64,000 nucleotides of DNA, from positions 1-64,000 of IMG/VR virus record IMGVR_UViG_3300011115_000716; one strand, written 5' to 3'. Numbering within the stretch: position 1 is the stretch's first letter; each line of letters opens with the position of its first letter. A program made the translations under genes and the position numbers. Below, in pieces: positions 1-26,672 of the stretch. The notes under the pieces were generated by a model, which was not told the DNA's origin, searched no databases, and was given only the letters and a program-made list of their open reading frames with translations. The DNA comes from a virus.

Positions 1-1946
1 CCATCAACAAGAGGCACAACAATTTCAGCGTTGTGACCATCAATAGTCATACTGTCACTGTAACCCCAAGCCTTACGGCGTTCTTCATCCCACTGACGAG
101 TCTCATCAACAAAGCCTAAGGCAGTAATAACACCAGCCCTACGTAATCTGTGAATGATTTGGTCTTGTTCCTTAGCGTTATACCAAACACCATCAGTAAT
201 AACAATAAGAATCTTAATAGCACGCTCACTGTTAGCAAAGACATACTTGGCATAGTCAAGTGCTTGCTTAGGGCTAGTGCCACCAGCAGTGCCAACGAAT
301 GTCTTAGTTACCTTAGCCTTTTGATTAGCACTGTATAACATACGAGCATCATCAGCAAAGGTAAGCACTGTAGTGCTAGCACCTATCTTATCCATAGCAC
401 GCTTGATAGCCCACATAGAATCGTGTGCTGACTCGATAGTCCAGTTCATAGAGCCAGAGTTATCTAGCAAGATGACTGTCTCAATGTCTACGACATCTTC
501 ACGACCTTCATCCCATCTATCAAACACTTCATCAACAGCACCACCAGTAGCGTAACGATACACACTAAGTTTGCCACCACTAACTTTACGCTCCCAACCT
601 GGGTCATGCTCAGCACGGATAAGTTCTAGTTGATTAACAAAGGACTTGACTTGCTGTATAACTTCAGGTGCTACAGGTTTTTGCTGCTCGTAATTACTAC
701 GGGCTGGTGTTGGTTGATGCTTACTAGATAAAGTAGTCTCACCATTAAAGTTAGCAACCATATCATTGATATCTTCACGCAATGTATTCTTAATATTAGT
801 AAGATGCTTCTTAGCAATACTAGTTATATCATTTACCATACCAGGCTTAGGTTTACCACCAACAGATTGACTACTAGGCTTATCTGAATCACCATCACCA
901 GGCTTATCATTATCACCATCACCGTCACCGTCACTATCACCGTCACCATCACCAGGCTTATCACCAGGTTTATCTCCAGGTTGGTCACCAGGTTCAGGCT
1001 TATCATACTCTTCACCTTCTTCATCACCAGTAGACTCTGTGAACTCTTTGTCACGTTCCTTAAGAATCTTCTCAATGATACGGTCTTGACCTGCCTTAGG
1101 CATAGGTTTAGAACGTTCTGATGACTTGATGATAGAACCTTTGCCATCTTCATTCATATTAGGCATCTCTTGCCAACCACCATGTGGGTTACCATAAGGT
1201 GGATTCTTAGCAGGGTCCTTGAATGCTTCGTGAATGATGTCATGATACTCTTTGATGAGTTGCATTGCTATAGGTATCTGAGCACTGTCTGCTAAGTTAA
1301 GCACTGTGTATTTACTGATGATGTCAGATAACTCAGTGACTAACTCAGGCAGAACGAATGCCTTACGCAATGCTTTACGTAACTCAAGTGGAAGGTATGT
1401 TCTACCGTCTATTAACGGAAACAACATACCTAACTCAGTTGGGTTATCAATTAGATACTTAGCAATAGCTGCAGTAAACCAGTGCTTAACGTTACTATAC
1501 TTAGCACTTAAGAATACTTCAGTACGCTGGCTCTCTAGTGCATTGAACGCACGCTCATACTGATTACCACGAACCCACTTGACTAAATTACTACCAGCAC
1601 GAGGTGTTAATAAGATACGACCTATCTCGTGCAGAGATACACCACGAAGTTGCAACGCAACATCAGGGTCATTCAAGTCTCCAATATTTTTGGGATTGAA
1701 TGTAATATTCTCTGCATCTGATATAGCAATGGTACCTTTAGGCAACTCATAGAACTTATCTTTATCATCAGATACTGATACGTTAATCTGCCTAGCAGTT
1801 AACGCACTAGCAAACTTAGATACGACTTGAGCCATGCGTTCTTTTAGTTCATCTTGTCTATCAATAACATTAGTATTGTCAACCTTAAAGTCAATATCAA
1901 TACCAAGTTCATCATAATCAAATGAACCACGACCAATTTCAGTCAT
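1..1946 (-). CDS. VWA (MIDAS) domain protein, CobT-like partner of the MoxR ATPase; 3' end lies outside the window
   Basis: Not in the ORF track; translated by hand from ATG 1946 (SD AAGGAG). Motifs LHEIGRIL..FNALESQRTE, D/G/P-rich linker, ILLDNSGSM, GGT, VITDG. Confidence 0.88.
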   Translation of the reverse strand, partial: MTEIGRGSFDYDELGIDIDFKVDNTNVIDRQDELKERMAQVVSKFASALTARQINVSVSDDKDKFYELPKGTIAISDAENITFNPKNIGDLNDPDVALQLRGVSLHEIGRILLTPRAGSNLVKWVRGNQYERAFNALESQRTEVFLSAKYSNVKHWFTAAIAKYLIDNPTELGMLFPLIDGRTYLPLELRKALRKAFVLPELVTELSDIISKYTVLNLADSAQIPIAMQLIKEYHDIIHEAFKDPAKNPPYGNPHGGWQEMPNMNEDGKGSIIKSSERSKPMPKAGQDRIIEKILKERDKEFTESTGDEEGEEYDKPEPGDQPGDKPGDKPGDGDGDSDGDGDGDNDKPGDGDSDKPSSQSVGGKPKPGMVNDITSIAKKHLTNIKNTLREDINDMVANFNGETTLSSKHQPTPARSNYEQQKPVAPEVIQQVKSFVNQLELIRAEHDPGWERKVSGGKLSVYRYATGGAVDEVFDRWDEGREDVVDIETVILLDNSGSMNWTIESAHDSMWAIKRAMDKIGASTTVLTFADDARMLYSANQKAKVTKTFVGTAGGTSPKQALDYAKYVFANSERAIKILIVITDGVWYNAKEQDQIIHRLRRAGVITALGFVDETRQWDEERRKAWGYSDSMTIDGHNAEIVVPLVD

Positions 1947-1971
1947 GTATTTCTCCTTTACTATAAATAGA

Positions 1972-1991
1972 GTGGGGGCTTACGCCCCCAC
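1972..1991 (-). terminator. GC-rich hairpin (GTAA tetraloop) between the MoxR and VWA genes
   Basis: GTGGGGGC-GTAA-GCCCCCAC on the minus strand, weak T tail. Confidence 0.5.
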
Positions 1992-2002
1992 CCTGATTGA
2001 TA

Positions 2003-3334
2003 CTAGACAGAATAACTGTCTAATGATACACCGATGTCTGCTGCAATAGCATCGATGTCTGCATCAAGACGCATCTTAATTGCTTCACGCTCACCATCAT
2101 CCTTAGGGAAGTTGTTAAGCAATGAATACACTGCAAAGCCAAGGTTAAGTTTCTGTGCTTGGTCAATGAAGTTCATCAGGATACGTGGTGACATTGGTGT
2201 AGTGAACTGGTCAGTAGTCTTGCTTGCTTCACGAATGCTCTGTGCAAACTGTAGCAATGACTCAGACTTGATGAACTTACGTTCTACATCAATATCGTAA
2301 TCAAACTCAAGCTTAGGTTGCATACGGTCAACTAAAGCAACATCTTGCTTAGTGACTGCATAACCTGTGCCTGTGTTCTGGTCAACGATAAACAAGCAAT
2401 CAGGGTGGACCTTGACAACCTTGTTAAGTTGGTCAATGATTAACTCACGCTCATTAAGGACACGCAAGAACAAGTCTGCTGCCTTGGCAGGCATACGACT
2501 TAGTTCATTGATAAGGATTACTGATGGCTGCTGAATCGCAGTAAGGAACTGGCTGTCTTTCCATACAACGCTGTTGCCAACGCCTGTAGGGAAGAAACGA
2601 CCGTGAACTTTGCTCTCGTCAATCTGACGGCTACCTTCAATAACTACGAATGGTAGGTGATTAACTGCTGCAAAGTTATACGCAAAACTAGTCTTGCCTG
2701 TACCAGCAGGACCAGTGATAAGTAAAGTCCTTTGATTATGCTGACAATACTTAGCAACAGTAGCATCGCTAATATTGCCTGGCATTGTTCGGTCAAAGTA
2801 AGGCTTTACTTCTGGTATAACTAGAACGGCATCGCTGTTGCTAGTTGGTGTTGCTATTTCCATAGGTGTCTCCTTAGACATCTCGGGTTGGACAAGTAAC
2901 GGAATTGCTACTTGCTCTTGCACCACTGGCTGTGGTGTGGCTTGTGTTACTAGAACAATTGCTTGCTCATAAATAGACAATGAACTTGGGTCATTCAATG
3001 CTTGGTCTAGTAGATTTTGGAACTCTTCTAGAGCAGACCTTGAACTAGGCTTAGTTGTTTCAGGTAATTTCTTACCTAACTTCACCAAAAACATTGATGG
3101 TGTTATTGTGGAATTGATTACTCTATCTTCTGATGGAGTAGTCTTGAGTGATACTGGCTGTCCGACTAGTAACTCATCTTGTTCAATGAGCACATCGCCT
3201 TCTATCCAAGCACCAGCACGACCTCGACCTTCGCCTAATCGTGAGAAGATACGAACATCTTCAGTAGTAGGAACTACTGCTACTGTTCGCATCTCGCCAC
3301 TAGAAGTCTGAGACTTCATCATAGCTGCGTACAT
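2003..3334 (-). CDS. MoxR/CbbQ/CobS-like AAA+ ATPase
   Basis: Walker A GPAGTGKT, Walker B-like VILINE, VHPDC..N, ALVDR, SPR; adjacent VWA gene. Confidence 0.88.
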   Translation of the reverse strand: MYAAMMKSQTSSGEMRTVAVVPTTEDVRIFSRLGEGRGRAGAWIEGDVLIEQDELLVGQPVSLKTTPSEDRVINSTITPSMFLVKLGKKLPETTKPSSRSALEEFQNLLDQALNDPSSLSIYEQAIVLVTQATPQPVVQEQVAIPLLVQPEMSKETPMEIATPTSNSDAVLVIPEVKPYFDRTMPGNISDATVAKYCQHNQRTLLITGPAGTGKTSFAYNFAAVNHLPFVVIEGSRQIDESKVHGRFFPTGVGNSVVWKDSQFLTAIQQPSVILINELSRMPAKAADLFLRVLNERELIIDQLNKVVKVHPDCLFIVDQNTGTGYAVTKQDVALVDRMQPKLEFDYDIDVERKFIKSESLLQFAQSIREASKTTDQFTTPMSPRILMNFIDQAQKLNLGFAVYSLLNNFPKDDGEREAIKMRLDADIDAIAADIGVSLDSYSV

Positions 3335-3345
3335 ATGTTGCCTTT

Positions 3346-3738
3346 CTATTCGGTTGGACTATCAAATTCAATGTCACTCATAATGTCATTGAACTTGCTA
3401 GTAATTTCCTGATTAGCCATTGCTTCATCAGTGCTTTGCCAGGCCATTGTAGGCGTGCCTGTAATAACGCCTTGTATATAACGATGAGTATCTCCCTCAG
3501 CATTAACTAAATACAAGACCCCGTCCTTAACTTCAGCATTAGGATGCTTCTTTAAGGTTATTTCTAGGAATCCCTGGCTCATTGCCTTGGCTGATTCTAA
3601 TGTTGGAAATTGCATTTCAAGCACTTCCAACGCATCCTCACCGTTAACAATGGTGCAATCTAGGCATTTCTTAACAATGTAATAAGATAAGTTGCCGTTG
3701 ATTTCACTTGCTGTGATTCTAGGAATGTTGTTATCCAT
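3346..3738 (-). CDS. hypothetical protein
   Basis: 130 aa ORF with SD AGAAAGG. Confidence 0.7.
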   Translation of the reverse strand: MDNNIPRITASEINGNLSYYIVKKCLDCTIVNGEDALEVLEMQFPTLESAKAMSQGFLEITLKKHPNAEVKDGVLYLVNAEGDTHRYIQGVITGTPTMAWQSTDEAMANQEITSKFNDIMSDIEFDSPTE

Positions 3739-3739
3739 T

Positions 3740-4390
3740 AGGACACCAACCTTTCTATATAATGGACTACTAACGGTTGTTAGCAGGTTTGTCTATATTG
3801 CTATAGACACTACATATATAAGACTTGTTTATATAAGTAATGCGTATAGCAACGCTGGCAAAATGTTTGTGTTGGGCTCGCCATCGCCCTGTGGTATAGA
3901 CAAGCCCCCTGCTTGAGGTTACTAGTCGAATAGACTTATTATGTAACGCTCAATATACAGGGGGCTTGAGGTGTGTTCATATAATTTGAAATTAAGTTAG
4001 CTAAACTAACTGGGCCATCAGGGTAGTAGAGAACTCAGCACTCAGCAAATTAATCTACCCTTACACCAGGGAACCACTACGAATATACCAGCCAGAGTAT
4101 ATAAGTTCGGCATCTCACCAACTCAGGCTTTGATTGACTGGCCTAGCCACACCAGATGCTATGTACTACTACATAGAATTCTTATTTGTAATGCCTGTCT
4201 AGTTCTAGGGTTACCGGAGTTTCTACACCCTTGTCGTGGTCTATAAGCATTTCAGAGTATACCCTTACTAATCCGCAACCTAACCTCGTTGTATCTAACA
4301 TCTTTAGCCCTTGGTTCTAGACAGGCACTACGCCCTTTACATTTTGTAAAGGTTAGCCACTAGCAACATCTCTGCTGCTAGTGACAGTTC
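3740..4390 (-). ncRNA. Putative ~650-nt structured RNA (chain of about 15 stem-loops)
   Basis: No long minus-strand ORF; stems of 11-15 bp; GNRA loops (GAGA, GCAA) and G-U pairs work only on the minus strand. Confidence 0.6.
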
Positions 4391-4401
4391 CTTACAAACT
4401 A

Positions 4402-4905
4402 TTAGAACTTGTTTAGGAAGTTAAAGTCCTTAACCTGAATTTCTACTGTGCCTGTAGGTAGTAACTCTAGCATCTGCAGTGCTTTCTTGAAGTGAAAGAT
4501 AACTGCATCAATTGATATTGGACGGTTATATGAATCAAAGTACTGAGGAATTGCTTTATACAATTCACCATTCTTCTTTTGCATATCTTCTCTGAATTGG
4601 TAACGACTAAACTCTGGTCGTGGAGTTAGTGCACTAAGGTCAACACCATTCAAGTAAAGAGTTGCTGCTGAATTGCCTCGAATATCTATTGATAGGTTCT
4701 GAACATCTTTAGCTGAACTAAGAAGTGCCTTAGCTGCCTTAACATTCCAAGCCTTGAGGTCTTTCTCATACTTTTCTTCTGCTGCTTTGTAATCAGCATC
4801 ATACTTGTCTCGTGCAGTGTTATACGCTTTGATGCTATCTTCTAGCGTCTTTAACTTTGTAGTAATTTGATTGCGTGTTGCTACTACATTGATTTGTTGT
4901 GCCAT
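4402..4905 (-). CDS. hypothetical coiled-coil protein
   Basis: 167 aa ORF, SD GAAAGGCGGAG. Confidence 0.75.
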   Translation of the reverse strand: MAQQINVVATRNQITTKLKTLEDSIKAYNTARDKYDADYKAAEEKYEKDLKAWNVKAAKALLSSAKDVQNLSIDIRGNSAATLYLNGVDLSALTPRPEFSRYQFREDMQKKNGELYKAIPQYFDSYNRPISIDAVIFHFKKALQMLELLPTGTVEIQVKDFNFLNKF

Positions 4906-4965
4906 TTGTTGCTCCGCCTTTCTAAACGGTTATTGCTATCTGTTAACGGAATTGCTAACAGAAAC

Positions 4966-5133
4966 TTACTTGCTAGGCTTGTACCCATCAGCAAACATCT
5001 TAGCGTTGTGTACTCTGATAGCACCTATCTCTCTATCAACATGCTGTAGTTTTACATTAGCCTTACGCTCTACCCAGAACCAAAACTTCCAGCGTAGTAG
5101 TTGACGATTGGATATCTTACGAAACTCACTCAT
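4966..5133 (-). CDS. hypothetical protein
   Basis: ATG overlaps the upstream stop (TAATG); MSEFRKISNRQLLRWKFW... Confidence 0.6.
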   Translation of the reverse strand: MSEFRKISNRQLLRWKFWFWVERKANVKLQHVDREIGAIRVHNAKMFADGYKPSK

Positions 5134-5276
5134 TAGATTCTCACCAGCCTTAACTTGATGCCTAAGCGTATATACCAAGGCAACTGGCTTATAGCATAGT
5201 CTGATACGTGCCAGCCCTTACAGTCTGGACATTCATACGCATCTTCAGTGCCTGTATATTTATAGTGCTTGTTCAT
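5133..5276 (-). CDS. 47-aa protein with a YxCxxCxGWH zinc-binding motif
   Basis: Hand translation MNKHYKYTGTEDAYECPDCKGWHVSDY...; SD AAGGAAGG; fills the gap between neighbours. Confidence 0.65.
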   Translation of the reverse strand: MNKHYKYTGTEDAYECPDCKGWHVSDYAISQLPWYIRLGIKLRLVRI

Positions 5277-5514
5277 TTGTAGCCTTCCTTATTCCTAGGA
5301 CAAATCCTTCTGAGAGTAGTCCTGATTTAGTTAGTTCTTCTAGTTCTTTCTTGATGTCGTAGAGTGATTGGCACTCTGGACATACAGGAAACTTTTGTGG
5401 GTCATTACTAGGCACGAACTCTATGCCACATACTGCCTTAATTATTTTGCCATTGACATAGCCTTCCATTGCTTGGACTACATCTGTATAGTGGGCGTAC
5501 TTTTGTTCACTCAT
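5260..5514 (-). CDS. DUF3039-like protein
   Basis: AHY...AVCG..FVPSNDPQKFPVCPEC..LY matches the actinobacterial DUF3039 pattern. Confidence 0.8.
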   Translation of the reverse strand: MSEQKYAHYTDVVQAMEGYVNGKIIKAVCGIEFVPSNDPQKFPVCPECQSLYDIKKELEELTKSGLLSEGFVLGIRKATNEQAL

Positions 5515-5750
5515 TAATTTTCCTCCAGTGTTTTATATATCTCTTTCATAAGATAAGAGATATCTCGTTGTAACCCTACTGTCCATATTGCTTCTATGAT
5601 TGGTAGGCTTGGGCATTTGTTGCCCCGTTCTATGTCAGACAGATGACCTAAGGCTACTGAAGCCCTAGAAGACACTGTCCTTAATGTGATGTCGTCTTGC
5701 TCTCTAATTCTTCTTAGAGTGTGTCCTACTGCTGTGTTAAGGTCCATCAT
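5514..5750 (-). CDS. XRE-family HTH regulator, ClgR-like
   Basis: VGHTLRRIR...TLRTVSSRASVALGHLSDIERGNKCPS. Confidence 0.8.
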   Translation of the reverse strand: MMDLNTAVGHTLRRIREQDDITLRTVSSRASVALGHLSDIERGNKCPSLPIIEAIWTVGLQRDISYLMKEIYKTLEEN

Positions 5751-5980
5751 TACTCCTTAAAGTATGCTGATACGGCTGCCCATATGAATGTGATACAACT
5801 TAGCACCATAAAGGCTATACACAATGACATTGCACTAGAGTATGCTTTCATTGCTTCAGGTGTTTCATTCATATAGTATTGAAACTCATACTCGTTAGCT
5901 AACTGCCACGATACAAAGCCACTAAGTAGCAAAGCAAATGCTAGTAGTGTCTTGAGTCCTGTTTTACTCATTTGTTCCAC
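5750..5980 (-). CDS. small two-TM membrane protein
   Basis: Two hydrophobic segments; stop/start coupling. Confidence 0.7.
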   Translation of the reverse strand: MEQMSKTGLKTLLAFALLLSGFVSWQLANEYEFQYYMNETPEAMKAYSSAMSLCIAFMVLSCITFIWAAVSAYFKE

Positions 5981-6141
5981 TCCTTAGTCTCAACATTCCA
6001 AGTCTGTTTAGAACGAGGTGTAGTGCTACCGTATTTTGCTTCTCTAACCTTGAGCCTAGCGATTGCTCGCTTGCTAGTGTTAGGTGGTGTTACAGGTGTT
6101 ACAGGTGTTACTGGCTTGTTAGCCTTGACTGATTTAGTCAT
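5968..6141 (-). CDS. small basic protein with PVT repeats
   Basis: SD AAGGAG before ATG 6141; PVTPVTPVTP. Confidence 0.6.
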   Translation of the reverse strand: MTKSVKANKPVTPVTPVTPPNTSKRAIARLKVREAKYGSTTPRSKQTWNVETKEWNK

Positions 6142-6370
6142 TTGTTTCTCCTTTGAGTATTGAATCATACTGACGACCAAGTTCAACTAGTCGTTCAGTG
6201 TCTTGACGTTGTTTCTCTTCGGTTATATATTGTTCTATTGCTATTGACCTTAGATTTCTTAGATATGATACCTTTTCGGATGCTTCTCTAATGATTTTTT
6301 GCTGTTCAGCAATTTTTTCATCAACGTTCCTAACAACATAATCAGGAACTTCTATATCTTCATTGCTCAT
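6134..6370 (-). CDS. hypothetical coiled-coil protein
   Basis: 78 aa ORF, SD GAAAGGTAGG. Confidence 0.7.
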   Translation of the reverse strand: MSNEDIEVPDYVVRNVDEKIAEQQKIIREASEKVSYLRNLRSIAIEQYITEEKQRQDTERLVELGRQYDSILKGETND

Positions 6371-6634
6371 TGCTATACCTACCTTTCAAATAGGTTGGGG
6401 GGCTTAGCTACTTCTAGATAACGACTACCTGAAAGGTTGCGTGTCTCTTGGTTGCAACTAAGCCCCCGTCTTACCCTTAGAACGCCCCGACAATTAGGTA
6501 TAAAACAACACCGGGGGTCTAAGGGGGCTGTGCCCCCTTTTACTGCTCTCTATGGGGGACTTTATTATAGAGAGACAGAGAAGACTTAGAGGATAGATAA
6601 CCCACTTACTATCCTTGCTTCTATTGGAGAAGAC
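6371..6634 (-). ncRNA. Putative structured RNA or leader (~260 nt)
   Basis: At least six stems, including a 14-bp stem (6398-6411/6454-6467) with G-U pairs on the minus strand. Confidence 0.5.
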
Positions 6635-6988
6635 TTACTTAATGTAGTTCTCTACATATTCTGTTACAAACTGTAGGAAGTTGCTCTCTCTAGTAGGGTC
6701 AGTATCAAGATATTTACACGAGTAACAACCGACTTCTTCTATATTGGCAAGGAGAGAGTCATAGGCGTTCTCTTGCTTAGATATCTCGTTGTTCTCTCTA
6801 CTCATAGGCATAATAACTATACCTATATCAGAGAGTCCTGCTCTTACCATTACAACGGCATTACGGCTTGCTGTAATGATTTCTGTGTGCTTACACCCTT
6901 TAGACTCTTCTATGGTCTCTACGGGCTCTACAGGGCTTTCTTGACGTATCTTATAGCCACAGCCACAGCTACATCTTTTTTCACTCAT
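6635..6988 (-). CDS. hypothetical protein with Cys motifs (CxCGCG, CxH, CxxC)
   Basis: 117 aa ORF overlapping the upstream gene (ATGA). Confidence 0.65.
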   Translation of the reverse strand: MSEKRCSCGCGYKIRQESPVEPVETIEESKGCKHTEIITASRNAVVMVRAGLSDIGIVIMPMSRENNEISKQENAYDSLLANIEEVGCYSCKYLDTDPTRESNFLQFVTEYVENYIK

Positions 6989-7356
6989 CGGTTTCTCCCA
7001 TCAGACACCACTTTCTTTGGCTTATGTGTTAGGTCAATCTGTCGAAGCATTGCTTCTTCTAGACTGATAGTCTCTCCACTTGGTAGAGTGACTTGGATGT
7101 TGCTGTTAGTAGGCAAGACTCTTGGCTTCACCGTAGTGACGCTTTCGTCTTTGTCTCCATTAAGAGCAGCATTTAGGACTTTGTTCTTTCCTATGATTGC
7201 GGCTTTCAACTTTGCCCACTCTTCGTTAATCTCATCTTGACTAGCAAGAGGGTTATTCTTGACATAGTCATACTGAAACTCTCCGTAAGACACTTTGACT
7301 TGCTGCTTAGCAACACGCTTGACATTGTGTCTACTCCGACGATTACGGTCAGACAT
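6985..7356 (-). CDS. hypothetical protein
   Basis: 123 aa, SD AAGGAG. Confidence 0.7.
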   Translation of the reverse strand: MSDRNRRSRHNVKRVAKQQVKVSYGEFQYDYVKNNPLASQDEINEEWAKLKAAIIGKNKVLNAALNGDKDESVTTVKPRVLPTNSNIQVTLPSGETISLEEAMLRQIDLTHKPKKVVSDGRNR

Positions 7357-7459
7357 ACTTCTCCTTTGTGTGTAGTACCTGATAACAAGCGACTTCTTCC
7401 CCTGTACATCTGGGCAGACCAGCTGTCAGGCTCTGCTTGCTTCTTAGCAGTAGCCAAGA

Positions 7460-7516
7460 GTGCCCCGGTAAGACTCGAACCTACCTGTACCAGCCTTGTA
7501 ATACTGGTTTGGGGCT
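7460..7516 (-). ncRNA. tRNA-like element lacking a D-arm
   Basis: Canonical T-arm GTAGG-TTCGAGT-CTTAC, acceptor-like GCCCC/GGGGC, one anticodon-like hairpin ACCAGT-ATTACAAG-GCTGGT. Confidence 0.5.
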
Positions 7517-7568
7517 TGTGCCTAGGTATTATGAAAGCCCCCTAGGCTTAGGGCTTGGTGTGTATGGT

Positions 7569-8051
7569 TTAGAGAGACTTCTGTAGTGCTACTAGAGTCT
7601 CGTAAGCCCATTTAGCCTTACGGAACTCTTCTACGGTTCCCTCGTGAATGAAGAAGACCTCTTCCTGAGAAGCGCCTTTCTCCATCATGCGTGTCATTTC
7701 CCAAGCGCGTGCTCGTGCTTCCTTGCCCTTAGCCAAGAATACGAAGTACGGGTCTGTGGTACGACCTGCGGCAGTTTCGTCTTTCCAGATAGCCTCGGCT
7801 TCTGGGCAGGCGAATACAATAGCAAGACGGTTAGCCATCTTGCGGTTGTTGTTCATAGAGATAGCAAGGACTTCAGGGTTTACCTTAGTCTCGCTTACTG
7901 TGAACAGTGCCTTAGCGAAAGATGTAAGAGCAGCCTTGAAGTTCTCTGCCTTAGTCTTAGCGCCTTGGATTTGACGGGTTAGTGCGTCGCTGGTGCCCTT
8001 ATCGGCAGGTGATGCCAATAGGTCAAAAGCGTTAGAGTATCGTGTTGCCAC
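7569..8051 (-). CDS. hypothetical protein, first gene of the leftward arm
   Basis: 160 aa, GTG start, SD GGAGG. Confidence 0.75.
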   Translation of the reverse strand: MATRYSNAFDLLASPADKGTSDALTRQIQGAKTKAENFKAALTSFAKALFTVSETKVNPEVLAISMNNNRKMANRLAIVFACPEAEAIWKDETAAGRTTDPYFVFLAKGKEARARAWEMTRMMEKGASQEEVFFIHEGTVEEFRKAKWAYETLVALQKSL

Positions 8052-8252
8052 GGTACACCTCCATTGTTGTAGTTGTATACCCTATGGAAGCGGTATAGAC
8101 GGCGGATGCCATCGCCCCCCTGCTGTGTCTCGCACACAGTAATACAAAGTAATTCCCATAAGGTCAGGGGGACCATACACACACAAAACCAAAACCATTG
8201 ACCAACTAGAACACCATAAGAAGCGGTGCCTGTATAGAACAACAGGTATAAC

Positions 8253-8402
8253 CTAACTGACGGCATACCAAGTGTTTATAACAATTGGGATACAACTGCC
8301 AAACACTAGGCGAGCAACTACACCCGAAACGGGCGTGTTGTTGTTGCCGACAATTAGATACTAACTGACGCCAGCCGAACCGATTATAACAAAAGGGATA
8401 CA
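8253..8402 (-). promoter_or_regulatory. Duplicated 42-bp element, probable tandem leftward promoters
   Basis: CTAACTGACG-N13-TTATAACAA-N2-GGGATACA at 8253-8294 and 8361-8402; the minus strand reads TGT-TATAA(A/T), an extended -10. Confidence 0.6.
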
Positions 8403-8476
8403 TTTATTTACATTTCAGGGAACTAATGCCCAGGTCAGACACGCCGTTGAGGCCACTAGATGTCAGGCAGTAGCCT

Positions 8477-8492
8477 AGTTTCACGTGAAACT
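8477..8492. promoter_or_regulatory. parS: parS centromere-like site
   Basis: AGTTTCACGTGAAACT perfect palindrome; core GTTTCACGTGAAAC is the actinobacterial chromosomal parS consensus; intergenic. Confidence 0.8.
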
Positions 8493-8496
8493 TATG

Positions 8497-8511
8497 CTTA
8501 AAACGCCCCTG
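8497..8511 (+). promoter_or_regulatory. Repeated upstream motif CTTAAAACGCCCCTG, copy 1
   Basis: Identical 15-mer at 9210-9224; both precede an (C/G)ATACT box and an ATG. Confidence 0.55.
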
Positions 8512-8531
8512 CAGTATGGCATACTGGATGA

Positions 8532-8822
8532 ATGAGTGAAGAACGCGGTAAAATACCATGTCCTGGTTGTGGGGGGTATCTTCGCCTAAATAATGACACC
8601 CTAAGGTTTGCTCATGAAGGACCTCATGACCCAGATTGTAATTTTAAATCTGTTGAGCCTATAAACTTTCAAGTTATTACTGCTTATAAAAGGGGTATGT
8701 GGAGGTTTACTCCTGACGGTAAAGTAGAAAGAACACCGACTCCACCTATTAGTGGAGAACAGTTTGGTAATTCAGATAATGTCATTAACGTAGATTTTAA
8801 GAACAAAAAGCGTATAGAATAA
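8532..8822 (+). CDS. hypothetical protein with CxxC..H..H..C zinc motif
   Basis: CPGCGG...FAHEGPHDPDC. Confidence 0.7.
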   Translation: MSEERGKIPCPGCGGYLRLNNDTLRFAHEGPHDPDCNFKSVEPINFQVITAYKRGMWRFTPDGKVERTPTPPISGEQFGNSDNVINVDFKNKKRIE

Positions 8823-11824: not shown

Positions 11825-11998
11825 ATGCCTACCTATCAATACAAGTGTGAAACTTGTGAATCTACTGTTAGTCACGTAATGACTGTATCTGAAGAACGTA
11901 AAATGCCTGAATGCTTACCTTGTAAGAAAGATATGGTCAGAGTATTTTCTGCGCCTTCACTGACCTTTAAAGGTTCGGGATGGGGGTCTGACAGATGA
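11825..11998 (+). CDS. FmdB-family zinc-ribbon protein
   Basis: Hand translation MPTYQYKCETC...PECLPC...RVFSAPSLTFKGSGW. Confidence 0.85.
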   Translation: MPTYQYKCETCESTVSHVMTVSEERKMPECLPCKKDMVRVFSAPSLTFKGSGWGSDR

Positions 11999-12330
11999 TT
12001 CCTTCAACAATTAAGATAGGTACCCAAGTTTGGACTATCGTAGAGCACACGTCTAAAGAAGATGGGATGCTTTATGAAGATAACTATGGGTACACTCTAG
12101 AACGTCGTAACATGATTGTTCTTGATAAAGATGCTTCTGATACCCGTAAGAAACAAGTACTGATGCATGAAATACTACACGCTATTCGTTTTACTTTCTT
12201 TACTGGAAGTAAAATGAACCCTAAGCTAAACTTTGAAGATACAGAGCACTATTTCATTGGTATGTATGAAGAAACGTTACTTATGGTGTTTAAAGACAAC
12301 CCACAGCTTTTAGAGTACTTAATTAGTTAG
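11995..12330 (+). CDS. HExxH metallopeptidase-like protein
   Basis: QVLMHEILHAI plus downstream E. Confidence 0.75.
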   Translation: MIPSTIKIGTQVWTIVEHTSKEDGMLYEDNYGYTLERRNMIVLDKDASDTRKKQVLMHEILHAIRFTFFTGSKMNPKLNFEDTEHYFIGMYEETLLMVFKDNPQLLEYLIS

Positions 12331-12333
12331 TAG

Positions 12334-12362
12334 TTGCCCAACACAAACATCTATGCTAAGGT
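12334..12362 (+). promoter_or_regulatory. putative promoter for the NlpC/P60 gene
   Basis: TTGCCC-17-TAAGGT with TGn extension. Confidence 0.5.
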
Positions 12363-26207: not shown

Positions 26208-26226
26208 TAGCCAAACCCTTCGTCGA

Positions 26227-26249
26227 GGGGGGCCTCAAAAGGGCCCCCC
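26227..26249 (+). terminator. hairpin after the capsid gene (no U tail; stabiliser or attenuator)
   Basis: GGGGGGCCT-CAAAA-GGGCCCCCC. Confidence 0.45.
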
Positions 26250-26288
26250 AACACAAACAAACAAACTAAAACAAGGAGAATAAATATC

Positions 26289-26672
26289 GTGGCAAATAAA
26301 CCCACTAGTCCACAGGACACAACAGGACGCGCAGTAGAAGATGCTGCAAGGCGTAACGCAGCTGAATTAGCTGCTCGCAAAGATGAAATTGCATTATCTC
26401 GTCAGGCAGAAGTTACAAGCCTAGAGAATGATGTATTCGACCCAAGACAACCAGATGCTCCAATCTTGCTAGACGAGGTTGAGGAACTTGGTGTTAATGT
26501 CACTGCTGATGAGTTCGTTATCATCCGTACAATTTCAGACATTGAAGACATGACTTATGGTGTAGTAAACGGTGCTCCGCAGAACTTCACCTTTAAAGCC
26601 GGAGTTAAGTACAAGGTTCCAGTCGATTTGGCTTCATACCTTGCTCGTCTAGGTTATACCTGGAAAGCTTAA
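26289..26672 (+). CDS. hypothetical virion protein
   Basis: 127 aa, SD AAGGAG. Confidence 0.75.
   Translation: MANKPTSPQDTTGRAVEDAARRNAAELAARKDEIALSRQAEVTSLENDVFDPRQPDAPILLDEVEELGVNVTADEFVIIRTISDIEDMTYGVVNGAPQNFTFKAGVKYKVPVDLASYLARLGYTWKA

Follow-up and report, generated by a model that had tools for sequence, protein, structure and literature searches.

A conserved, modular tract of base-paired RNA between two same-strand genes of a 90-kb viral genome

Why does the virus recorded in IMG/VR as IMGVR_UViG_3300011115_000716 carry, between two genes of the same strand, 663 bases (3739-4401, minus strand) that hold no open reading frame (ORF) of at least 60 aa on that strand? The window analysed here, 64,000 nucleotides long, is the first 64 kb of this 90,052-bp record, which has direct terminal repeats. 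The tract lies between a 167-aa gene upstream (4402-4905) and a 130-aa gene downstream (3346-3738), after which come genes for an AAA_5 ATPase and a VWA protein, all on the minus strand. A preliminary description of the window had read the tract as one continuous large noncoding RNA (ncRNA). We find instead that it splits at 4185/4186 into two separable modules, mod1 (4186-4401) and mod2 (3739-4185), with rods that have been swapped and helices that are all local. The tract is a conserved, base-paired RNA: its conservation, its pairing at the RNA level, its strand, its modularity and its linkage to the flanking genes are established. As to what it does, it may well be a string of cis-acting hairpin modules that serve the processing, stability and translation control of an early polycistronic messenger RNA (mRNA), a reading that we prefer tentatively and weigh below.

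Relatives were found by a search with the AAA protein and by DNA pattern searches. Seven of them cover the region (L002, L003, L004, L009, which is also L008 and L015, L010, L012 and L014), all freshwater virus or metagenome contigs; two others stop short of it (L011, 444 nt upstream only, and L016, the C-terminal gene part only) and were left out. Their AAA proteins are 64-91% identical to that of the window, L004 (64%) and L014 (68%) being the most distant. BLAST with the tract as query returned two blocks: bases 1-218, corresponding to mod1, in six of the seven relatives, and bases 218-663, corresponding to mod2, in all seven, at least for the 5' part. The relative without mod1, L004, also lacks the gene that precedes it. 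The spacing between the modules is 0 nt in the window and L009, 158 nt in L002 and ~490 nt in L014, and is filled by two small genes in L003, L010 and L012. Public contigs from other lakes diverge from the window exactly at 4187 and 3863, and the reads of four DNA sequencing runs show only the mosaic joints and a few variants. Mod1 invariably follows a gene of 136-167 aa, and mod2 invariably precedes the 130-aa gene (eight of eight genomes, the window included). The two BLAST blocks, the variable spacing and the contig breaks therefore indicate that mod1 travels with its upstream gene and mod2 with the 130-aa gene.

The pairing of both modules is maintained by compensatory change. For mod1, RNAalifold on a plain MAFFT alignment of seven sequences predicts 62 pairs, 17 of them with a compensatory change, and 95.2% of the cells are paired; for the 5' block of mod2, with eight sequences, it predicts 23 pairs, 13 compensatory, and 97.3% of the cells are paired. 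For either module none of 500 shuffles matched the observed value on any of five measures, and slid controls were 31-45% paired for mod1 and 22-38% for the mod2 block. The 3' half of mod2 has 30 predicted pairs, six compensatory, and a covariance model of the 5' block (R1) recovers all eight copies at 84-126 bits. Across the helices, G.U cells outnumber A.C cells by 69 to 10 (43:6, 17:3 and 9:1 in three alignments), and there are conserved G.U pairs and GU-to-UG flips, which are mismatches in DNA or on the other strand. The excess of G.U over A.C means that the folded molecule is the RNA of the gene (minus) strand. The claim of the preliminary description that the structure is selected at the RNA level on this strand is thus upheld, both by these cells and by the covariation in related phages.

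Folding energy is the weaker evidence of the two, covariation in seven to eight sequences being the stronger. On the minus strand the tract as a whole has a folding energy of -224.7 kcal/mol (z -7.83, equalled by none of 20 shuffles), and on the plus strand z is -3.64. When the tract was folded by parts, with 200 shuffles per part, mod1 (z -6.56) and the 3' part of mod2 (z -7.06) proved more stable than shuffled sequence, whereas the best conserved part, the 5' core of mod2 with its pseudoknot and hairpins P3-P6, did not (z +0.30, equalled by 119 of the 200 shuffles). The energy signal of the tract therefore comes from its long rods. Conservation without extra stability is what RNAs that adopt a tertiary fold or bind a partner typically show. 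Low z is not specific to the tract either, as the coding window 3081-3300 reaches z -6.5 (220-nt windows over 1-8800, 15 shuffles each). This window is one of three inside the AAA ATPase gene (2641-3300, minus strand) with z -4.0, -4.8 and -6.5 at the same number of shuffles, which could reflect structure in the 5' part of that gene or noise from few shuffles.

The earlier statement that the tract belongs to no known family stands. Rfam at gathering score gave no match in the 64-kb window or in 47,433 bases of the seven related loci, and at E <= 10 over 3500-4600 only mir-4536, mir-1277 and snoR30 appeared (E 2.5-5.6, 15-19 bits against cut-offs of 60-81), which are junk. ARAGORN found no tRNA or tmRNA gene in the window, and a tmRNA or tRNA-like identity was rejected. 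A blastn search of 3700-4450 against 50,697 GenBank phage records returned no match, and a full-text literature search found no paper on these RNAs. The motifs of the tract are new families, with no match in Rfam 15, of a familiar kind. A group I or group II intron was likewise rejected: the upstream ORF ends with its own stop codon (TAA 4404-4402), the downstream ORF has its own Shine-Dalgarno (SD) sequence and ATG (3755-3736), relatives have other genes between the modules, and no Rfam intron model matches.

Mod1 and the elements that share its most distinctive loop are laid out as follows.

4186-4401, minus strand: mod1, structured module after the 136-167-aa gene (4402-4905 in the window).
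4356-4385, minus strand: H1, a 13-bp hairpin GUCACUAGCAGCA-GAGA-UGUUGCUAGUGGC with loop GAGA or GAAA, beginning 17 nt past the stop codon.
4334-4398, minus strand: alternative-pairing segments 1 (UUUGUAAGG, 4398-4390), 2 (CCUUUACAAA, 4352-4343) and 3 (UGUAAAGG, 4341-4334).
4352-4334, minus strand: small hairpin CCUUUACA/UGUAAAGG, which competes with the extension of H1.
4188-4331, minus strand: mod1 domain, closed by a 15-bp stem (4331-4317 / 4202-4188) that encloses 114 nt with a rod-like interior.
4310-4316, minus strand: AACCAAG, 5' strand of the internal loop atop the 15-bp stem, invariant in seven of seven sequences.
4203-4208, minus strand: CUAGAA, 3' strand of the same internal loop.
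6399-6470, minus strand: element B, in which the AACCAAG/CUAGAA loop recurs on a 14-bp stem, immediately upstream of the ribosome-binding site of gene 6134-6370.

All 13 positions of H1 are paired in the seven sequences, and five of its pairs change on both sides. Segment 2 can pair either with segment 1, which extends H1 to a long rod, or with segment 3. The 1:2 pairing contains a pair that occurs as AU, UA and CG; the 2:3 pairing is the minimum-free-energy form and shows a fitting C-G to U-A change in L014, read from the alignment. The three segments may act as a switch. In the domain, 99% of the closing stem is paired, and three compensatory pairs occur in each of inner helices 5 and 6. A 39-aa ORF within the module (4182-4301) was discarded as a candidate gene, its ATG being missing in five of seven sequences and stops occurring in four of seven; the indels of mod1 are not multiples of three, which speaks against small-ORF coding.

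The internal loop atop the closing stem recurs in element B. A script scan for AACCAAG...CUAGAA with 14 of 14 flanking pairs found exactly two sites in the 90-kb genome, mod1 and 6399-6470, and the stems of the two are unrelated in sequence. In the related genomes (here G001-G006 are the related or other viral genomes compared with this one, G000), element B is kept in G001, G003 and G004; the first two show covariation in its stem, and its loop reads RACCAAG/CUAGAA in G001 and is altered in G003. The helices above the shared loop covary too. The position relative to the next gene is similar: the closing stem of mod1 ends ~10-15 nt before an AAAGGA ribosome-binding site in L003, L010 and L012, and element B ends ~25 nt before the ATG at 6370. 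We considered three known motifs for this loop, the K-turn, the loop E and the exact 11-nt tetraloop receptor; judged by eye against consensus sequences, none of them fits. Element B lies in a second ORF-free structured gap on the minus strand (6371-6634, 264 nt), of which 6381-6600 folds at z -6.7 (15 shuffles).

Mod2 consists of a chain of hairpins that runs up to the start codon of the 130-aa gene.

3739-4185, minus strand: mod2, preceding the 130-aa gene.
4159-4176, minus strand: P1, a 7-bp hairpin CUAUGUA/UACAUAG with loop GUAG, GCAA or GUAA and AAGAAUU just before it.
4126-4155, minus strand: H-type pseudoknot; S1 is CUGG 4155-4152 / CCAG 4141-4138 and S2 is GGCU 4148-4145 / AGCC 4129-4126.
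4105-4122, minus strand: P3, a hairpin with a U-GNRAN-R loop; five pairs, 100% paired, four compensatory, with six pair types at one position.
4083-4102, minus strand: P4, a hairpin with UGGC in the loop; six of seven pairs compensatory, L014 being misaligned there.
4020-4061, minus strand: P5, AGGGUAG/CUACCCU and an inner hairpin, identified by eye from single-sequence folds.
3995-4011, minus strand: P6, a hairpin; five alifold pairs, four compensatory.
3901-3968, minus strand: P7, a 68-nt rod AAGCCCCCUG...CAGGGGGCUU, in six of eight sequences and almost invariant.
3857-3882, minus strand: P8, a 6-bp stem with a 14-nt loop (3876-3863) that holds a dispersed motif.
3798-3852, minus strand: an optional long hairpin, in the window and L002 only (a gap in five of seven rows), whose 3' strand overlaps P9.
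3790-3809, minus strand: P9, UGUCUAUA-GCAA-UAUAGACA; two of five pairs compensatory (UCUAUA/UAUAGA versus UCCGUA/UACGGU).
3767-3786, minus strand: P10, a hairpin; eight pairs, two compensatory.
3733-3755, minus strand: SD sequence GAAAGG (3755-3750) and a small hairpin (3744-3733) whose loop contains the AUG (3738-3736).

The stems listed in the preliminary description, namely H1, CCUUUACA/UGUAAAGG, the 15-bp stem, P1, P5, the rod 3968-3901 and P9, are all present. A GCAUCU/AGAUGC stem, proposed alongside them, was rejected: relatives do not keep it, and the pseudoknot and P3 occupy its place. The stem that was said to cover the ATG at 3738 survives as a small hairpin whose loop contains the AUG; comparable AUG hairpins form from other sequence in L012 and L014, a weak test since the 3' strand is coding. 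Pairing of the P8 loop with the SD region was also tried and shows no covariation.

P1 is 100% paired with three compensatory pairs. In L003, L010, L012 and L004 its 5' strand supplies the final codons and the stop codon of a gene of 104-109 aa; because P1 coincides with a gene end in four relatives, we take it to be a gene-end hairpin that the window kept though the gene is gone. S1 of the pseudoknot is invariant in eight of eight sequences and so offers no test of covariation, while S2 occurs as GGCU/AGCC, GGGC/GCCC, GAGC/GCUC and GGCU/AGUC (read from alignment rows), with standard pairs in 31 of 32 cells and both-sided changes in three of its four pairs. P5 takes the forms CAAGUAG/CUACUUG, CAAGGAG/CUCCUUG and AAGAGU/ACUCUU in relatives; MAFFT misaligned this region, so that alifold missed P5 and returned only P6. 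The P8 stem covaries (GGCGAG/UUUGCC, GGCUAG/CUAGCC, AGCCUA/UAGGCU) around a loop core that is invariant in seven of eight sequences and differs by one base in L014. The 3' half is the more changeable: P7 is swapped for rods of unrelated sequence in L014 and L004, and L014 lacks the P8 stem, P9 and P10. Every helix predicted by alifold is local, and no multi-way junction or long-range pairing was found.

Several observations adjoin these modules. The gene that ends in P1 is the second of a pair (~70-77 aa and 104-109 aa) found between mod1 and mod2 (L003:2664-3182, L010:1189-1684, L012:288-788) and, in L004, upstream of mod2 (L004:2348-2892); the window lacks the pair, and the 104-109-aa gene has a weak match to PHROG 27218, of unknown function. 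In L004 and L014 model R1 has one more match, to a partial copy made up of AAGAAUUC and the P1 hairpin. Between the two P1 copies of L004 lie ~300 nt (L004:2893-3196) that are free of ORFs, form several strong hairpins and are unrelated in sequence to mod1. The first early gene, which starts with the GTG at 8051, is preceded by a long leader (8052-8400, minus strand) that carries a CCCCCUG...CAGGGGG rod followed by GCGAUGGC and GUCUAUACC; by eye the same blocks, in different order, also follow rod P7 of mod2, and short-word BLAST finds one shared 10-mer.

How, then, might such modules act? We prefer to see them as cis-acting because the helices are local, the parts are inherited or replaced independently, they sit at gene ends and gene starts, and they have no transcription signals of their own: no usable sigma-70-like promoter or intrinsic terminator was found in 3739-4401, with a consensus that may not be the host's, and the lone promoter-like site (9/12 match, 3979-3952) is not conserved. 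The modules would ride on an early leftward polycistronic transcript, in which the 15-bp stem of mod1 and element B could be recognition sites for an RNA-processing or RNA-binding factor. Cleavage at such sites would divide the long messenger into units, each upstream piece then ending in a stable 3' hairpin; the rods would serve as exchangeable stabilisers, and mod2 would act as a leader that determines how the group of 130-aa, AAA ATPase and VWA genes is expressed. The pseudoknotted core of mod2 is the part likeliest to have a more specific role, perhaps binding a factor, for which the 130-aa protein is the obvious candidate, or acting after processing.

The closest analogy is with phage T7, whose early region has intergenic RNase III hairpins in its polycistronic mRNA, each made of a lower helix and an upper one separated by a conserved internal loop; they stand just upstream of the next ribosome-binding site and occur in several copies per genome. 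The 15-bp stem of mod1 and element B are similarly intergenic between same-strand genes and near the next ribosome-binding site, on what we infer to be a single transcript, and are similarly made of two stacked helices, with lower stems of 15 and 14 bp, the same 7/6-nt loop and covarying upper helices. They differ from the T7 sites in that mod1 encloses ~100 nt of conserved extra structure, and we claim no likeness in sequence. Several points weigh against the cis-acting reading. The resemblance to T7 is one of analogy, and it is by inference that the modules are co-transcribed and cleaved, influence stability or translation and are recognised by a particular factor. The core of mod2, best conserved of all, is not more stable than its shuffles; many unpaired bases are invariant in the 100-nt interior of mod1 and in the pseudoknotted core, and that invariance exceeds the needs of a plain cleavage site or stabiliser. 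Finally, the alignments hold only seven to eight sequences, several being near relatives (L003 shares 93-95% identity with the window), so that the shuffle controls overstate significance.

The unpaired bases bear on a different account, in which the tract would yield one or more stand-alone stable ncRNAs, either the 5' core of mod2 (P1, pseudoknot and P3-P6, ~190-215 nt) or mod1 and mod2 together, processed out and acting in trans as a folded RNA, as is proposed for the large ornate phage RNAs GOLLD and ROOL. The core is present in all eight sequences, including the most distant, L004 and L014, and covaries strongly; it combines a covarying pseudoknot stem with GNRA-type loops and those invariant bases, no known family fits it, and stability no greater than that of shuffles is usual for RNAs that rely on tertiary contacts. 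We nonetheless regard this account as doubtful, given that no promoter or terminator was found in the tract, that it is made of local hairpins whose parts are lost or swapped independently, that in four relatives a protein-coding gene ends with P1, and that the core is confined to one small phage group and found solely beside the 130-aa gene: model R1 did not find it in five further viral records, and one pattern scan of species-representative prokaryote genomes gave two matches without further likeness, taken as chance. (A match of the mod1 pattern scan, L030, lies inside a 186-aa ORF and was dismissed as chance.) Like GOLLD and ROOL, the tract is phage-encoded, several hundred nucleotides long and rich in conserved structure, with a pseudoknot; those two are often, though not obligatorily, near tRNA islands (PMC12286853). 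The tract matches neither covariance model, the window has no tRNA genes (ARAGORN), and here the helices are local and the parts separable and exchangeable. Rather less probable is that mod2 is a binding site for the 130-aa protein or for the AAA/VWA pair, as an autoregulatory translational operator or the RNA part of a ribonucleoprotein. The strict linkage of mod2 and the 130-aa gene in eight of eight genomes, even where the upstream sequence differs, would fit, as would G005 (L049, AAA protein 45% identical), which lacks both the 130-aa gene and, by model R1, the mod2 core; a plain leader would show the same linkage. The 130-aa protein belongs to no Pfam or PHROG family, its AlphaFold2 model (pLDDT 79.9) has no Foldseek match in the PDB at E <= 0.001, and it thus has no recognisable RNA-binding family or fold. 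T4 gene 32 has an H-type pseudoknot in its leader that works as an autogenous translational operator. The design of mod2 is similar, but its pseudoknot lies ~390 nt upstream of the start codon, with nine more helices between, and the 130-aa protein is not a known nucleic-acid binder.

The loop of P8 bears on the remaining two accounts. When the tract was compared with its own genome by short-word BLAST, one 11-15-mer, which is this loop, gave many matches; three complete genomes contain its 10-mer core 11, 12 and 9 times, and the reversed pattern 0, 3 and 1 times. The copies in this genome, five of 11 of them intergenic, are at the following positions.

3863-3876, 12337-12353, 26247-26263, 31669, 36908, 45246, 53043 and 56500: P8 motif copies within the window.
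74865, 82142-82158 and 89048: P8 motif copies beyond the window.

The copy at 82142-82158 lies, reverse-complemented, inside the gene for a class II ribonucleotide reductase (RNR; Pfam RNR_Alpha 3.3e-30), at a site identical in three complete genomes, so that the P8 loop is complementary to 16-17 nt of the RNR mRNA. P8-type hairpins might therefore act in trans as antisense to this mRNA and tune its stability or translation, the rest of mod2 being scaffold or leader; we judge this improbable. The site is the longest ungapped complementarity of the tract with any plus-strand transcript (16 nt, one G.U), but chance runs in a reversed-sequence control reach 15 nt. Of the three variants of the loop, two (A to G at position 4, C to U at position 15) would remain paired with RNR through a G.U, and in G001 the motif recurs in an additional P8-like hairpin, which lies between the genes for the AAA and VWA proteins. 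In three genomes the six codons of the target are free of synonymous change while flanking codons vary, yet invariant runs of four to five codons occur elsewhere in the 64-codon stretch, which leaves the extra constraint weak. The target is ~960 nt into the gene, far from its start, and single-target antisense does not explain 9-12 copies of the core per genome, partly in genes. In the c4 RNA of phages P1 and P7, a small structured antisense RNA of an operon leader, loops pair with phage mRNA in trans; here the candidate target is 11.8 kb away on the other strand, and the loop has several copies. Moreover, 28 of 32 motif sites, RNR included, point away from the divergent early region, which fits a polar DNA motif equally well. 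Such behaviour, together with the many inverted repeats and the mosaic joints at module borders, could be expected of a DNA-level element (an origin, packaging or recombination site) whose inverted repeats mimic RNA structure. To this we give very little credence: the ratio of G.U to A.C, with its conserved G.U pairs and flips, the poorer folding of the plus strand, the GNRA loops and the covarying pseudoknot are features of RNA. There is also a slim chance that two of these ideas hold at once, the mod2 core being a new processed phage RNA class or the RNA half of a complex with the 130-aa protein, and P8-type loops being antisense to RNR mRNA; the phage would then have an RNA-based timer of deoxynucleotide (dNTP) synthesis.

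If the modules do act in cis, this small group of uncultured freshwater phages arranges its early operon around no fewer than three RNA motif families not recorded before (mod1, the mod2 core and the AACCAAG/CUAGAA stem-loop), with the dispersed 15-17-nt motif as a fourth feature; in them the cutting, stabilisation and translation of long phage messengers could be studied in a natural setting outside the usual model hosts. The motifs could enter RNA family libraries, with the result that such gaps in metagenomic phage genomes would no longer look anomalous. The link between loop motif and reductase, if real, would be of wider interest.

The motif of the P8 loop has a distribution of its own. 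Its 15-mer form stands at conserved places: just after ORF 11995-12330 in the right arm, in the P8 loop, in the additional P8-like hairpin of G001 and, reverse-complemented, in the RNR gene. The copies at 12337 (plus strand) and 3876 (minus strand), which flank the divergent region, are conserved in G001-G004; the stem at 12337 is weak, and copies also occur in coding DNA. In lambda (nut, with boxA and boxB) and HK022 (put), each of the two divergent early operons carries one short RNA hairpin, conserved in its loop, that is read in the nascent transcript. The P8-type sites may be comparable, as they lie on either side of a divergent region; they differ in being ~4 kb from the promoters and in having further copies inside genes, and no N-like protein is identified, no search for one having been made. 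G005 keeps a 13-mer copy ~330 nt upstream of its AAA gene. A scan of IMG/VR with the 16-mer gave at least 118 stretches, mostly threonine/proline-repeat coding DNA, where ~100 would be expected by chance on a rough estimate that assumes, as a guess, ~10^11 positions.

The genes downstream of the tract are these.

3346-3738, minus strand: 130-aa gene, directly after mod2 in seven of seven relatives.
2003-3334, minus strand: AAA_5 ATPase gene (Pfam AAA_5 2.6e-16; PHROG 249).
3-1946, minus strand: VWA gene (Pfam VWA 9.4e-08).

The genome is that of a freshwater phage of ~90 kb, whose host is probably among the Actinomycetota. A DUF3039 protein, HTH proteins and homologues of the AAA protein in Gordonia, Brevibacterium and Microbacterium phages suggest this host, as does the origin of the sequencing runs that contain the sequence, which are lake and river metagenomes (21 runs, with no RNA run among them). 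A terminator-like, G+C-rich hairpin lies between the AAA and VWA genes (1969-1994, minus strand), and G001 has the P8-like hairpin mentioned above at the same place. A repeated layout of terminator-like G+C hairpin, motif, ribosome-binding site and GTG start occurs in L044, L049, L052, L103, L048 and the window (26225-26290); one of these genomes, G006 (L052), has no AAA homologue.

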